From: a virus
Direction: 5' to 3' (one strand)
Length of the DNA stretch: 64,000 bases
Virus record (IMG/VR): IMGVR_UViG_3300042988_001121
Coordinates: 32,001 to 96,000 of that record
Under the pieces are notes generated by a model. The model did not search any database, was not told the origin of the DNA, and worked only from the letters and a program-made list of their open reading frames with translations. The position numbers and the translations under genes are program-made. Shown here piece by piece: positions 2,835 to 29,799 of the stretch; the first letter of the stretch is position 1; every line of letters begins with the position of its first letter.

Positions 2835-2859
2835 AAAAGGGCACTTCGGTGCCCTTTTT
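2835..2859. terminator. Bidirectional intrinsic terminator with a UUCG loop after gp23
   Basis: AAAAGGGCAC-TTCG-GTGCCCTTTTT between convergent genes. Confidence 0.9.
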
Positions 2860-4499
2860 CATTTCTTTATCCCATAAACTTTGTTTCCGAAGTCATAAAT
2901 CTTTGAATACCCCAATTGTACCATAATATCTTCTGTTTTCATTGAAGAAAATTCAGGGTATTTTTCAATAAGTTTCCAGCGCTGAAACGTCATTCTGGAG
3001 TAACGCTTGCCGCCCTTATACCAACTGAACCCTTGCTCTGTTTGTTTTAGTTCAGTGAACCCCATATTTTCATATAGTTTTCCTGTTCCCCACCGAAGAT
3101 CACAATAAGAAATAATAGAGTCTGGTTTAGCGGATGACATAAAATGTTTTAGCAGTTTAGATGCACCGCCGATAACATTCGTATCGTTCAATGAGCAAAA
3201 TCGGAGCAATTCATACTGGTACTCTTTATTGAATCTAGACAAACCAAATGTCATTACAGCAACGAGTTCACCTGAATGTATTAGACCATATCTATGTTTT
3301 GATTGACACCAGCCCTGTATGTGATTTGTTTCAATAAATTCTCTACACTCAGTTTCTGTTAATTCAATGACAGAACATTTTCTTGCATGAATCTTTTTTT
3401 CTGTGATACCAAATATAGAACGAAGTCTTGAATAAACAATGTCTTCATTTTCGTCATCAAAGATTTTAATCAATCTGATACCAATTGAATCGCACATAAC
3501 TTTCTTGTGGTAATCGTCTTTATCTCGATGGAAGTAAAGACCATCATATTCAATCGCAATATTTTTCTCTGGAACAACTATATCCAACTCATATGGAGCA
3601 ATAAGTGTTCTGTCGTTTACCAAACAATTGAAACCGGCGTTCTGTAACATATCAACGATTCTTTTCTGTGGAACCGATCTGATGTTGCATTTAGGACAGA
3701 ATAATTCTTTTTTACTGAGAATGCTAGCCGAAAATTCAGTTGAACAGCAATTACATTTCCAGTTATATTTCTGATATCGAATATCCGATTCAATATACTT
3801 TTCAACTGTATCAAGACATTTTATGTTGCATGTAGTTTCAAGTAATGAAACCTTTTCTTTAAACCAAGGTATCGCAACATTCTGGTTATAGGTATCATTC
3901 AGTTTTCTTGACCCGAGCCTTTGTTGACGAATATTGTCTCTGTATTCTAAATTTGCATCTTTACAATCAACTGAACAGAAATCAGCAATACTTTTACCAT
4001 AAGGAGTTTGACTGACATTGTGAACAGGAATGATATCACCACACTCTTTACATTTCCGAATCAATTCGGAGCCATATTTTTCTATCTGAAGTAATGTCTT
4101 GATATCATTGAAATCGTGTTTCTCTTTAAGAGAGTCAACCGTTGCTTTTGACAGAAACTTATCTACCTTGCTCCATGAAAGATTACCATTCTGATCATAT
4201 AGAATAGAAAAATCTTCCAATATCGGTAAAGAAGAATCTTTTGTAGCAGAATACTCGTATTTACATTTCAATGAACAAGTTGATCCAAAAGACCCTTTCT
4301 TGAAATTGAGTCGGTCGAATACATCACCACATACCTTACATGTAGGAATCTCACCATGAATAACACCGGCTATCAGAGTCATTGCAGATAGCCCCTTGCG
4401 AACACCAAGGTAGGATTCAACCATTTCTCTATCTTCTGAAAAGGAAGATAACACATTGCTATTCAAGCCGCCCTGTTTGTTCAAATACTTTTCTAACAT
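2859..4499 (-). CDS. Free-standing Hef/Vsr-like (PD-(D/E)xK) homing endonuclease with Zn-finger N-terminal repeats
   Basis: CxxC clusters; ELDIVVPEKNIAIEYDGLYFH; C-terminal IHARKC...NHIQG...ELLRFCS...GGASKLL domain typical of this phage family; antisense to flanking late genes. Confidence 0.75.
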   Translation of the reverse strand: MLEKYLNKQGGLNSNVLSSFSEDREMVESYLGVRKGLSAMTLIAGVIHGEIPTCKVCGDVFDRLNFKKGSFGSTCSLKCKYEYSATKDSSLPILEDFSILYDQNGNLSWSKVDKFLSKATVDSLKEKHDFNDIKTLLQIEKYGSELIRKCKECGDIIPVHNVSQTPYGKSIADFCSVDCKDANLEYRDNIRQQRLGSRKLNDTYNQNVAIPWFKEKVSLLETTCNIKCLDTVEKYIESDIRYQKYNWKCNCCSTEFSASILSKKELFCPKCNIRSVPQKRIVDMLQNAGFNCLVNDRTLIAPYELDIVVPEKNIAIEYDGLYFHRDKDDYHKKVMCDSIGIRLIKIFDDENEDIVYSRLRSIFGITEKKIHARKCSVIELTETECREFIETNHIQGWCQSKHRYGLIHSGELVAVMTFGLSRFNKEYQYELLRFCSLNDTNVIGGASKLLKHFMSSAKPDSIISYCDLRWGTGKLYENMGFTELKQTEQGFSWYKGGKRYSRMTFQRWKLIEKYPEFSSMKTEDIMVQLGYSKIYDFGNKVYGIKK

Positions 4500-4727
4500 A
4501 AATACCCCAACAAAATAATTCATAGTATATCATGGAATCAAGAACACATCAATTGGATAACACAAAACTCTCGGGTAACATCTTTGAAAGCATTCTAGCT
4601 GCTTCTCATGATTGCTATATGAGTCGAAGAAGGGAAAACAGAAACATAGAACTCGGGGCAGATGCACCAAGAGGAAAAGAATCTGCTTTCATTGGTGGCT
4701 GTGTAACGAGTCTTCTGAAGGTACAAA

Positions 4728-5210
4728 ATGGCTGATGCTGGTTTTAACCATCTACAGACAAATGCATTCACGTTTACTTTACAGAGGATGCAAGCAACTA
4801 CCTTTAGAATAACTTCAGCCGAGGTGCCATCAATTACTGTTCCTCCACCAAGTACAGGAACACAGGGAGCAACACAATATCATCCCGGTAGTTTCACTGA
4901 GTTTGATGAATTGTCTCTGAGATTTATTGTTGATGAAGACCTTCAGAATTACGAAGAAATATATCATTGGATAACACAACAGAGATATGCTATTGGCACT
5001 GCATATCAGCCAAAGTCAGATGCAGAGAAATTATTAGTGAGTGATGGGTTTCTAACGACTCTGACTAATAAGAGCAATCCAAATAGAACAATCTATTTTA
5101 AGGATATGTTTCCTATTGCATTAGGTAGTCTTGCATTCAATGTTCAAGAGACACCAGAACCATTGACATGTTGGGTAACATTTAGATTCAGTTACTTTGA
5201 GTTGAGGTGA
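4728..5210 (+). CDS. gp3: gp3-like tail completion/tube terminator protein
   Basis: HPGSFTEFDELSLRFIVDEDLQNYEEIYHWI matches gp3 (RPG..F.Y..L..RFIVDEEL..W...Y.W). Confidence 0.85.
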   Translation: MADAGFNHLQTNAFTFTLQRMQATTFRITSAEVPSITVPPPSTGTQGATQYHPGSFTEFDELSLRFIVDEDLQNYEEIYHWITQQRYAIGTAYQPKSDAEKLLVSDGFLTTLTNKSNPNRTIYFKDMFPIALGSLAFNVQETPEPLTCWVTFRFSYFELR

Positions 5211-5249
5211 TCATCATTACAGGTACTCTGTACTCATAAGGATTCATTA

Positions 5250-5885
5250 GACTCTGTTTGGGTAAACCAAACCATAGTGTGCTCCGCACATCGCTACGCG
5301 ATCATCCTTTATTTTTCTTTTTTCTTTTCGCGACTCCCTCCGGTCATACAGCGGTTGAGAAAAACAAAGTTACCCCGTTTCCGGGGGTAAGACGATGTTT
5401 CTCCCAACCACCGTATGATTTAAATCAGCATAGCTGATCATACATCGGCGTCGAATGAACTTAGTTTGATTTACAACCCCATTCCTATCTCAGAATGTTT
5501 AGGTAGCGCGGTGATTAAACGCTTTACGTAGTTACCTCTATCACTGTGGGTACTGACAAGAAATCAAACGTCTTCCGGGTTACTCAGTGTTCTACAGAAC
5601 AAAATTCACTCCGGTTGTCAATACCGTGGCACGCCCGCAGGTGCCTCTGCCCACCCTATTTCAGATCATAGTGAGCTTACCCTACTCTTTCTTTCACCAC
5701 CCGTTATCTACGATAAACTGAATTCGTGTTTTTCGGGAGGAACCATATCCTCTTGTGGTCTACTCGATTAGATGTAGTCAATCCATTTAGCTATGTGGTC
5801 AACCCATAGCCTAAGTCATCAATGCTTCGTTACGCTGCCATTGACACCAGCTACAGACAGTTTAAGGAGTAGATTGCGGCTCCAT
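5250..5885 (-). ncRNA. Candidate large structured non-coding RNA (or origin-associated structured region)
   Basis: No ORF of 60 aa or more; dense local hairpins including a GAAA tetraloop on the minus strand (5370-5390); long-range complement GTTTGATTT 5465-5473 / AAATCAAAC 5561-5569. Confidence 0.45.
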
Positions 5886-5888
5886 CAA

Positions 5889-6055
5889 CAGAACAGTAGT
5901 TTTAAGTGGTACTCGTCACTGATAAATAAAATGCAGTTTAGTGAGTATGCGGCTCAACAGATGGTACAGCAGAACAGTAGTTTTAAGTGGTACTCGTCAC
6001 TAACTTGGATATTTATGTTTTCGATGAACTGGTATTTTAACGTGGTACTCGGCAC
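5889..6055. repeat. Direct repeats: two identical 32-mers plus one degenerate copy
   Basis: CAGAACAGTAGTTTTAAGTGGTACTCGTCACT at 5889-5920 and 5970-6001; degenerate GAACTGGTATTTTAACGTGGTACTCGGCAC at 6026-6055. Confidence 0.9.
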
Positions 6056-6139
6056 GAACAGATGCTATTTATCAACACTATAACACAGAAAACGTTTGAG
6101 TCAACACATTGGTTGACACATTTTGAAAATAAATTATTT

Positions 6140-6580
6140 ATGCTTGATCATGAACAGCTTTTGACCGAATGGGAAACCGATTGTAAGGTTCCCTCTGATG
6201 CTCTGTTAGAGCGCATGTACAGACACCCCATCCTTCATAGCAAGTATCTTGGCTACCTACAGTCTTATAAGATCAGTAGTCGTAAGGTCACACTTCGCTA
6301 TCAGAAACTCCGGCTCCTGAAGACCCGTTACTATAACGGAGAACTGTCAGAAGAAGAACTAATTGAGAACAATCTTAAACAGTACCTGTATAAGCGACCT
6401 TTGAAGTCGGAAATGGAATCTCTACTGGATGCCGATGCTGATCTTCAGAAACTTCAGGAACAGATTCTGTATATCGAGACTTTGATTCAGAGTACCGAGG
6501 CTATCATGAAAGAGTTGACTAACCAACACTATCTGTTCAAAAATATCATTGAACAGACCAAATATCTTACAGGGAATTGA
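6140..6580 (+). CDS. uvsY: UvsY recombination mediator
   Basis: W..D...D......HP.LHSKYL, YYNGEL and LLDAD.DL motifs; sits before uvsW. Confidence 0.85.
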   Translation: MLDHEQLLTEWETDCKVPSDALLERMYRHPILHSKYLGYLQSYKISSRKVTLRYQKLRLLKTRYYNGELSEEELIENNLKQYLYKRPLKSEMESLLDADADLQKLQEQILYIETLIQSTEAIMKELTNQHYLFKNIIEQTKYLTGN

Positions 6581-6581
6581 A

Positions 6582-6854
6582 ATGTTTAGAGGCGCAGTAA
6601 CACTTGACAAAAATACTGTTATCAATTTTTTGAACTCACATGGAGTCGATCTTGTTCAATGGGTAGCGGATAAACTGGATAACCCAAAGATCGTTTACAT
6701 GCACAGTAACATTTTTGTGGTCGGCGAATCAACAGAATTTTCTGTTGCCAAATCTAGTATGGAATCTTACCCTCTTTACTCACTGAGATTTTTTGGTGTT
6801 GATTTACTTGACTACGCTTTTGAGGAACTGAGATTTCAATCAGTGGTTCTATGA
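6582..6854 (+). CDS. Hypothetical protein
   Basis: ORF tightly packed between uvsY and uvsW (ATGA overlap with uvsW). Confidence 0.6.
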   Translation: MFRGAVTLDKNTVINFLNSHGVDLVQWVADKLDNPKIVYMHSNIFVVGESTEFSVAKSSMESYPLYSLRFFGVDLLDYAFEELRFQSVVL

Positions 6855-8335
6855 CAGACATTATTATTCGTAAGGTCAATGAGACATATCTTGAAGTCGT
6901 ATCTGACATGGATACGGCTTTCGTTATCTCTGATAGTTATAGTTTCAGACCAGATGGGTATCGATTCATGCCAGAGTATAAGGCAGGTCGATGGGATGGG
7001 TATATCAGAATGTTCAATATGGGAACCCGCAGAATGTTATTGGGTCTGAAAAATGATCTGATTCAATTCTGTGAACAAAGAAATTACTCATATTCCCTTG
7101 AAAACTTCGACGATCAGTCACTGAATCTCTCTGACAGTGATGTAGATGCCTTTATTTCGCGTTTAAACGCCTTTGGAGGCGATAAACCGTTACAGGTAAG
7201 GGGATACCAGCGGTATGCCATTAAAACGGCTCTAAACGCCTCTAGATCGATTTTAAAGGCAACTACTGGCGCAGGTAAATCTTTTATTCAATACGCGCTA
7301 TCAAGATACCTTTCCGAAGAACTTGGACTAAAGGTTCTGATTCTTGTTCCAACAGTGGCGCTTACTACTCAGATGAAGAATGATTTTGCTGATTATTCTT
7401 CTCGGTCTGATTGGTCTGCCGAAAAGAATGTTCATACAATCAGTGCTGGTCTTGATAAAGACACAGATAAACCAATTGTGGTCAGCACATTCCAATCTAT
7501 CTATAAGATGCCAGTGGAATGGTATGAGCAGTTTGGGGCAATTATTGGCGATGAAGGTCATAAGATAAAGTCTTCTACAATATCTTCGATCTTCATGAAT
7601 TCAACTAAATGTAGATTCAAGATCGCCTGCACAGGCACATTGCACGATATGAAGTGTCACCTGAAGCAGATGATTGGGTTGACAGGCGATGTAGTTGAAG
7701 TTGCTGATGCAAAGGATTTGATTGCCGAGGGTCAGTTGGTTCCATTGAAAGTATCTGGAATTATATTGACCTATGACAAAGAAGTTGCAAAAGCAATGAA
7801 AAAAGCTGACTATGAAACGGAGATAAAATACATTGTCACGAACACCAAGCGGAACAAGTTCATTGCGAATCTGGCGCTGAAATGTAAGGGAACTACTTTA
7901 CTTCTATATAGGTTCATTGATCTTCAGGGTGATCCGCTGTATAAGATGTTATGTGAAAGAACAGATAGAACTGTTCACTTCATTGATGCCGATGTTGATA
8001 GAGAGACAAGAGAAGAAATCCGTCAGAGCGCAAATAAATCTGATGACGATATTATTGTTGGTAGCTACGGATGTATGAGCACTGGCATCAATCTTCCTGC
8101 GATTGAAAACATCATTTTCTGTCATCCAGTGAAGTCCAAGATCACGGTTCTTCAGAGCATTGGTAGGGGTCTGCGGCTGAAGGAAGGTAAGACACACTGT
8201 AATCTCTATGACATTACCGATAATATGACGTATAATAGAAAGCAGAACACAACTTTCTCGCACTTCAGTGAGCGTGTTGGTATGTACGGCTCAGAAGGGC
8301 ACTCTGTTAAACTTATTACGATTCCATTTGAATGA
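6851..8335 (+). CDS. uvsW: UvsW SF2 helicase
   Basis: YKAGRWDGYIR, RGYQ, ATTGAGKS, DEGH, TGT, STGIN and QSIGRGLR motifs. Confidence 0.95.
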   Translation: MTDIIIRKVNETYLEVVSDMDTAFVISDSYSFRPDGYRFMPEYKAGRWDGYIRMFNMGTRRMLLGLKNDLIQFCEQRNYSYSLENFDDQSLNLSDSDVDAFISRLNAFGGDKPLQVRGYQRYAIKTALNASRSILKATTGAGKSFIQYALSRYLSEELGLKVLILVPTVALTTQMKNDFADYSSRSDWSAEKNVHTISAGLDKDTDKPIVVSTFQSIYKMPVEWYEQFGAIIGDEGHKIKSSTISSIFMNSTKCRFKIACTGTLHDMKCHLKQMIGLTGDVVEVADAKDLIAEGQLVPLKVSGIILTYDKEVAKAMKKADYETEIKYIVTNTKRNKFIANLALKCKGTTLLLYRFIDLQGDPLYKMLCERTDRTVHFIDADVDRETREEIRQSANKSDDDIIVGSYGCMSTGINLPAIENIIFCHPVKSKITVLQSIGRGLRLKEGKTHCNLYDITDNMTYNRKQNTTFSHFSERVGMYGSEGHSVKLITIPFE

Positions 8336-14367: not shown

Positions 14368-14406
14368 ATCTACACATATTTTTCTCTGTGATACAATAAC
14401 TCCATC
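14367..14406 (+). promoter_or_regulatory. Repeated early promoter cassette, copy 1
   Basis: AATCTACACATA-N-TGTGATACAATAACTCCATC: CTACAC, 17-nt spacer, TACAAT with extended TG. Confidence 0.85.
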
Positions 14407-28956: not shown

Positions 28957-29033
28957 GCGCCTGTAGCTCAGTTGGACAGAGCAACAGCCTTCTAAGCTGT
29001 GGGTCAGAGGTTCGAATCCTCTCAGGCGCACCA
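28957..29033 (+). tRNA. tRNA-Arg (anticodon TCT)
   Basis: GCGCCTG/CAGGCGC acceptor stem, ACAGC-CTTCTAA-GCTGT anticodon arm, GGTTCGAATCC T-arm and encoded CCA. Confidence 0.96.
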
Positions 29034-29724: not shown

Positions 29725-29799
29725 TCGGGGATAGCTCAATGGTAGAGCAGGGAACTCATAATTCCTTGGTTGTCGGTTCGAGTCCGGCTCCCCGAACCA
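29725..29799 (+). tRNA. tRNA with a CAT anticodon (Met or lysidine-modified Ile2)
   Basis: TCGGGGA/TCCCCGA acceptor stem, GGGAA-CTCATAA-TTCCT anticodon arm, GGTTCGAGTCC T-arm and encoded CCA. Confidence 0.93.

Follow-up and report, generated by a model that had tools for sequence, protein, structure and literature searches.

We asked what lies in the gap of 0.93 kb that separates gp3 from uvsY in the genome of a T4-like myovirus. An earlier first-pass annotation had proposed a large, densely paired RNA as a candidate there, and we wanted to know what the stretch encodes, in which direction it might be read and whether related phages share it.

The gap between gp3 and uvsY is non-coding

The virus is known from freshwater metagenomes. 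Its IMG/VR record of 178,209 bp has direct terminal repeats and a GC content of 40%. Positions are those of the window, that is, the whole stretch of 64,000 nt that was analysed (G000:C1:32001-96000 of the record), except where the prefix G000:C1 or the text marks them as positions of the whole genome. The surroundings of the gap are as follows.

2859-4523, minus strand: homing endonuclease gene, 554 aa (phrog_3339, HNH type, Mom-like region)
4728-5210, plus strand: complete gene of the gp3/tail-tube family, left flank of the gap (phrog_45 tail tube, E 1.3e-27)
6140-6580, plus strand: uvsY, right flank of the gap (phrog_231, E 7e-25; PF11056)
6851-8335, plus strand: UvsW-like helicase gene

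The C-terminus of gp3 can be aligned with the full-length proteins of relatives. The homing endonuclease gene, just upstream of gp3, has a low GC content (0.30-0.40) and an orientation opposed to that of its neighbours. Just upstream of gp3, the relatives L026 (1836-2504, 3250-3456) and L037 (721-921) have a protein with a PF03496 ADP-ribosyltransferase domain and a small PF01192 protein similar to RNA-polymerase omega/Rpb6.

The gap is one of only four gaps of at least 250 nt in the 178-kb genome. The first-pass annotation had found no credible gene in 5211-6139, and reading frames, family searches and a dicodon score all bear this out. The longest stop-to-stop frame on the minus strand has 40 aa; frames of 50-101 aa are open on the plus strand because that strand is pyrimidine-rich. 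A search of Pfam and PHROG with ten stop-to-stop frames of the gap returned no match at E<=0.05. A dicodon model, trained on 87 long ORFs from the same genome, scored below 0 in all six frames of 5211-6074, compared with +0.2 to +0.5 for gp3 and uvsY. One ORF of 96 aa (5793-6083), which spans the direct repeats described below, found no homologue in our search, and none of the short ORFs in the gap has a plausible start context or a usable ribosome-binding site. A tblastn search of the gap with the proteins that relatives carry at this junction gave nothing significant. The annotation had also allowed for a decayed protein gene; no frame holds a residual coding signal. An unrecognised protein-coding gene or a recent pseudogene is thus extremely improbable, and this reading is largely refuted, since the open plus-strand frames that would favour it are explained by composition and since the negative dicodon score, the empty family searches, the lack of a homologue of the 96-aa ORF and the lack of ribosome-binding sites all speak against it.

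The composition of the gap differs from that of the genome. Its GC content is raised (0.42-0.475 vs 0.40), and, within a run of genes on the plus strand, its minus strand is rich in purines. Towards uvsY there is an AT-rich stretch at 5900-6199 (GC 0.355-0.37).

Predicted promoter, repeats and a terminator-like hairpin

The features that we find in the gap are listed from right to left.

6064-6104, minus strand: predicted sigma-70-like promoter, TTGACT (6104-6099), 16 nt, TG-extended TATAGT (6082-6077), then GATAAATA (6073-6066)
5886-6056, unstranded: three 35-nt direct repeats (5886, 5967, 6022; 97% and 66% identity), unique in the genome
5446-5867, minus strand: putative transcript body, ORF-free, purine-rich on this strand, without above-chance structure or homologue
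5423-5439, minus strand: 7-bp hairpin just upstream of the 32-bp hairpin
5344-5418, minus strand: 32-bp hairpin (14 GC, 14 AU and 4 GU pairs), predicted leftward, possibly bidirectional, intrinsic terminator and 3'-end stabiliser
5257-5329, plus strand: three short hairpins (5257-5271, 5278-5290, 5290-5302) and a T-rich run (5308-5329), a terminator-like site

The leftward promoter matches the consensus at 10 of 12 positions, with the TG present, and has its predicted start near 6070. The phage has a promoter family of its own, which consists of ATAATCTACACATAA, about 8 nt and TGTG(A/T)TA(C/T)AAT and occurs in more than 25 copies oriented with local transcription (for example at window positions 14387, 17365 and 18124 on the plus strand, and 56312, 58990 and 60517 on the minus strand). 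The promoter in the gap has the extended -10 box of this family but a canonical -35 box. The combination of TTGAC with TGTGTTA is found in only one other promoter of the genome, on the minus strand at 149873->149843 of the record. The two promoters can be aligned over about 45 nt with a score of 16.5 (random genomic 100-mers: 6.4 +/- 2.5, with 1 of 2000 as good), and their similarity ends downstream of GATAAATA. We also see a palindrome, GTCAAC-ACATTG-GTTGAC, at 6100-6117 just upstream of uvsY, in which two divergent -35-like boxes stand back to back, TTGACT leftward and TTGACA rightward.

ATAAATA, which resembles the core of late promoters, is rarer than expected in the genome (31 occurrences vs about 78 by a rough composition-based estimate). 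As expected for a late-promoter core, 13 of the 31 occur in the 80 nt that precede an ORF start. Four are clustered in 5922-6141, one on the plus strand (5922) and three on the minus strand (6016, 6072 and 6141). Each of the 35-nt repeats carries an NGTG-N8-CACN dyad. In the degenerate third repeat both ends of the dyad change together, from AGTG/CACT to CGTG/CACG, a paired change that points to a dimeric binding site or else to a small hairpin.

The other end of the gap is dominated by the 32-bp hairpin. At its apex a GAAA loop caps a GC stem (5370-5390), which is directly followed by a U run from 5369 to 5358; a consensus scan of the minus strand found here the elements of an intrinsic terminator, a GC-rich stem-loop (5390-5370) and a CUUUGUUUUU run. 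The first-pass annotation had described 5370-5390 as a GNRA hairpin. The GAAA loop is indeed real on the minus strand, but it is only the tip of the much longer terminator-like hairpin. On the minus strand 5340-5446 folds with -52.4 kcal/mol (z = -8.3 against shuffles), on the plus strand with -38.9 kcal/mol (z = -5.0). In a genome-wide scan, no other 110-nt window is as stable as the one with this hairpin (-49.2, with a mean of -23.0 and an sd of 4.8). A perfect hairpin of about 24 bp, a palindrome at G000:C1:102560-102615, outside the window and in a minus-strand block, also ranks with the genome's most stable local folds.

The four G.U pairs of the minus strand become A.C mismatches on the plus strand, which makes the plus-strand hairpin 13.5-16 kcal/mol weaker. 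This asymmetry argues for selection on a minus-strand RNA. The hairpin resembles the bidirectional rho-independent terminators of phages in its GC-rich stem, tetraloop, 3' U run and 5' A run, and, like those between convergent units, it is sited where a plus-strand operon ends and faces a minus-strand unit. On the other hand, it is far longer than usual (32 bp), its U run is drawn into the lower stem, and its strand bias is strong owing to the four G.U pairs. GTATGA (5414-5419), which flanks the 7-bp hairpin, has two alternative pairing partners, 5438-5443 and 5345-5350. The plus-strand site at 5257-5329 is a candidate rightward terminator of the gp3 late operon (5211-5340 folds with z = -2.05 on this strand).

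Taken together, the promoter, the terminator, the strand-biased hairpin and the purine-rich composition mark out an ORF-free unit of about 0.7 kb in leftward orientation. We tentatively propose, giving it slightly less than an even chance, that the gap is an orphan leftward non-coding transcription unit of this size, located at a module boundary and ending in a terminator hairpin. The minus strand, which the first-pass annotation had already chosen, is supported by the leftward promoter, the G.U pairs of the hairpin and the purine bias. For this proposal we can further cite that the gap has no coding signal, that its -10 box is shared with more than 25 phage promoters, that its promoter resembles that of the verified RNA gene described in the next section, that four of the 31 ATAAATA motifs cluster within 5922-6141, three of them on the minus strand, that the genome has no stronger hairpin than this one, which favours the minus strand, and that GC is raised and the minus strand purine-rich within plus-strand genes.

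The proposed unit would work as follows. The gap marks the place where the late tail module (gp3) meets the early recombination module (uvsY-uvsW). The host sigma-70 RNA polymerase would initiate on the minus strand around position 6070, and the ATAAATA motifs at 6072, 6016 and 6141 may serve as further starts for the late polymerase. Transcription would cross the three repeats and then the purine-rich body of about 420 nt, and would end at the GC stem and U run within the 32-bp hairpin (5418-5344), which would also cap the 3' end of the RNA. The same hairpin, together with the small hairpins and the T run at 5257-5329, would block convergent read-through from gp3. The product would be an orphan ncRNA, homologous neither to the junction RNA of the relatives nor to any Rfam family.

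Related junctions and a structured RNA family

The first-pass annotation had brought up GOLLD and ROOL, with which, as with other large ornate RNAs, the gap shares that it is large, ORF-free and phage-borne. It differs from them in having neither a cmscan match nor evidence of ornate structure. In the Rfam search with permissive filters no match at E<=10 could be credited, and the best E in 5000-6300 was 6.8; GOLLD, ROOL, HEARO, OLE, group I/II introns and ribozymes were all rejected as candidates by this search. At the gathering threshold Rfam finds nothing in the whole window but two tRNAs. The tRNA genes of the window are Arg(TCT) at 28957-29033 and Met(CAT) at 29725-29799.

A comparison of the gp3-uvsY interval with that of relatives, which the annotation had suggested, produced no homologue of the gap. 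With blastn against GenBank phages, about 60 related loci and ten whole related virus records we obtained only chance matches, plus a double hairpin of 43 nt in the relative L023. Pattern scans of IMG/VR (the hairpin with a free loop, an 18-mer of the body, the repeat core) gave chance matches or none, and two 23-24-mers of the gap had no match among GTDB genomes, so that there is no sign of captured host DNA. A scan of JGI metagenome loci with a UvsY alignment yielded 12 loci and no homologue of the gap. This lack of homologues counts against the leftward unit. In Logan contigs from two other freshwater/aquatic studies, on the other hand, we found pieces of 151 and 193 nt that are 100% identical to the gap, which shows that its sequence is present elsewhere, without variation, and speaks for the unit.

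We surveyed the junction at about 40 loci collected through UvsY homologues (34-73% identical). In most relatives gp3 and uvsY are only 1-126 nt apart. Others carry inserts: an ORF of 180 aa and an HNH endonuclease in L004, a minus-strand ORF of 501 aa in L002, and minus-strand ORFs of 367, 199 and 75 aa followed by three long repeats in L023, the closest relative (UvsY 72% identical). None of the surveyed loci resembles the gap, except for the 43-nt double hairpin in L023 (3902-3942), which is inverted and 84% identical to that of the 5257-5329 region. Since different relatives carry unrelated cargo, the gp3/uvsY junction is an insertion hotspot. L023 also has a perfect 19-bp bidirectional terminator hairpin directly after gp3, which faces a convergent minus-strand unit; with the minus-strand cargo and the repeats that come next before uvsY, this is the same layout as in the gap and counts for the leftward unit. 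The repeats of L023 (3440-3900) are three direct repeats of about 90-125 nt with palindromes of the GTTCTA.AGAAC type, located immediately upstream of uvsY.

In L036 (UvsY 73% identical) there is an ORF-free gap of 570 nt before uvsY. It is homologous not to the gp3-uvsY gap, but to the second large ORF-free gap of our genome, 149,258-149,869 of the record and outside the window, which sits between an ORF of 203 aa and a gp55-like gene. Further members of what proved to be an RNA family (L008/L055, L009, the L040 group, L042, L043, L053 and the L059 group) were collected with nhmmer, a pattern scan for one conserved block and one further scan. The family comprises the following stretches.

G000:C1:149258-149869, the same stretch as L034:459-1070: the member in this genome
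L036:1713-2102, L009:126-550, L008:3349-3813 and L040:9607-10034: members in relatives
L042:2904-3314, L043:1-419, L053:910-1324 and L059:95-236: members in relatives

The members are about 400 nt long, with pairwise identities of 45-59%. RNAalifold, applied to seven sequences on the strand with the GNRA loop, predicts 10 helices with 50 pairs in all, 35 of which show compensatory double changes. Paired cells make up 89.8%, vs 71.5% in shuffles (0 of 500 shuffles come up to 89.8%) and 35-40% when the partners are slid; for covariation the score is 0.591 vs 0.236. A search of Rfam with the family gave no match. By this covariation the 149-kb gap is confirmed as a structured RNA of an undescribed family of T4-like freshwater phages, and this family is a stronger discovery than the gp3-uvsY gap itself. 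The family is found in either orientation and carries a GNRA hairpin. In the L040 group it lies between gp3 and uvsY; in L036, L008, L009 and L053 it is on the strand opposite to uvsY and directly upstream of that gene; in our genome and in L042 it is upstream of gp55. In L045, the stretch between the RNA gene and uvsY (2216-2612) contains decayed partial copies of the RNA: its 3' end is directly duplicated (88% identity), and two 100-nt repeats are inverted, internally deleted copies of its central domain.

Does the gp3-uvsY gap belong to this family? Its location fits, since it is ORF-free, lies at the gp3/uvsY junction and has ATAAATA upstream of its 5' end. The gap also shares with the family the GNRA-capped hairpin and a similar size, and with the member in our own genome a closely similar type of promoter. 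In contrast to the family members, it has no match in sequence or structure, and the transcribed parts cannot be aligned. Three covariance models, run with filters off on 4500-7000 of the window, gave 3.9 bits (R1, central; E 1.5, tetraloop only), 6.1 bits (R2, 5'; E 1.1) and 5.7 bits (R3, 3'; E 2.6), while true members score 41-131 bits, among them four lineages outside the training set with 41-71 bits. The models found no match in the whole window, an nhmmer search of the gap with the family gave nothing, and outside the promoter the local alignment and k-mer sharing of the two gaps are at chance level. As far as can be measured, membership is ruled out. That a covariation-supported RNA gene occupies the same junction in relatives nevertheless counts for the leftward unit. 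It is conceivable, and in our view fairly unlikely, that the gap is a second, lineage-specific large ncRNA which, under the same unusual type of promoter, has replaced the gp3/uvsY RNA of the relatives without detectable homology and might act in uvsY-linked replication or recombination, for example as an oriF-like R-loop primer.

Potentially, the gap could also be inert debris, a decayed or rearranged remnant of former cargo or of an RNA gene at a hotspot of insertion or recombination, in which only the terminators and perhaps the promoters still matter for the neighbouring genes. Most relatives do with 1-126 nt at this place and others have unrelated inserts, the L045 junction illustrates such decay, with parts of the RNA gene repeated there in direct and in inverted form, and the body of the gap shows no signal of structure and no homologue. 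Because the junction is an insertion hotspot, the promoter and terminator may likewise be leftovers of a lost cargo gene, which is a point against the leftward unit. A match to a promoter or terminator consensus also does not prove that the element works. Nevertheless, we consider debris somewhat unlikely. No frame retains a coding signal, the gap is not similar to the cargo proteins of relatives, it shares no more k-mers with the RNA gene of this genome than chance gives, and its GC content is above the genome mean, whereas that of the neighbouring homing endonuclease gene is 0.30-0.40. Inert DNA is usually lost fast from phage genomes, and the promoter, which belongs to a specific type, is intact.

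Folding of the body, the question of an origin, and meaning

The first-pass annotation had listed numerous helices, all of which are present, and had concluded that about 650 nt are densely base-paired. We find that the excess over chance is confined to 5340-5446. The whole 690 nt do fold better than shuffles (z = -3.4 on the minus and -3.9 on the plus strand), but this is due to 5340-5446 alone: among tiled 300-nt windows the signal lies at 5150-5650, and from 5450 onward the minus-strand z is between -1.0 and +0.6. For the 440 nt of 5446-5885, z is +0.07 on the minus strand (51 of 100 shuffles are at least as stable) and -1.96 on the plus strand. Both values fall inside the genome's own background of 300-nt windows (mean z -0.87, sd 1.27, minimum -3.3). 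The helices outside the one region are what is expected by chance, and a body energy equal to that of shuffles counts against the leftward unit. A folding energy no better than that of dinucleotide-shuffled controls was one of the outcomes that the annotation had named as a refutation, and the body shows this outcome.

How much weight does this carry? The energy test is a weak criterion, because members of the covariation-supported family themselves have MFE z-scores of only -1.77, -1.28 and +0.16, and with such unremarkable values in a proven family it is unable to exclude a folded RNA in 5446-5885. The special case of the leftward unit that the annotation had in mind, an ncRNA of a new class with a compact, multi-domain fold, draws on all features of the unit, and also on a stable 90-nt domain at about 5540-5626 (an 11-bp closing helix around a stack of three helices), which appears in both the MFE and the centroid fold, and on the low z-scores of the real structured RNAs of this phage group. 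We hold it to be distinctly unlikely, given the body z of +0.07, the lack of any Rfam match at E<6, the at most 6.1 bits from the three covariance models of the only related family, and the fact that not one homologue was found; the dense multi-domain structure as first described is not upheld.

Another possibility is that the gap is a replication origin, where a leftward G-rich transcript primes through an R-loop as at T4 oriF, or where the three repeats serve as iterons. UvsW is an R-loop helicase in T4. T4 oriF, which is about 100 bp long and lies inside uvsY, comprises a promoter and an A+T-rich unwinding element and requires a MotA middle promoter; iterons are found at T4 oriE (PMC3016281). 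With these origins the gap shares the adjacency to uvsY, a promoter with an AT-rich stretch (5900-6199), direct repeats, here three with dyads, and a nearby uvsW, just downstream of uvsY in our genome; divergent promoters and a G-rich transcript are predicted, and L023 also has three long repeats before uvsY. Unlike oriF, the unit lies upstream of uvsY, is divergent from it and ends in a terminator; oriF has no such strong terminator 700 nt downstream. Cumulative GC skew tracks gene orientation and has no feature at the gap, the repeats are entirely different between phages, and no initiator protein was identified. We regard an origin as quite improbable.

On its own, the gap is an orphan, a probable non-coding transcription unit that extends from a promoter to an exceptional terminator hairpin and occupies a module boundary which serves phages as an insertion hotspot. 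Its importance comes mainly from its context: an RNA of about 400 nt, supported by covariation and absent from Rfam, is found at the same junction in relatives and in the second gap of this genome, and the two gaps share a type of promoter that is present nowhere else in the genome. If the gap does make a functional RNA, there would be a small set of large ncRNAs tied to uvsY, uvsW and gp55, and this would offer a direct handle on the use of origins or on the switch from early to late expression in T4-like phages outside the E. coli model.
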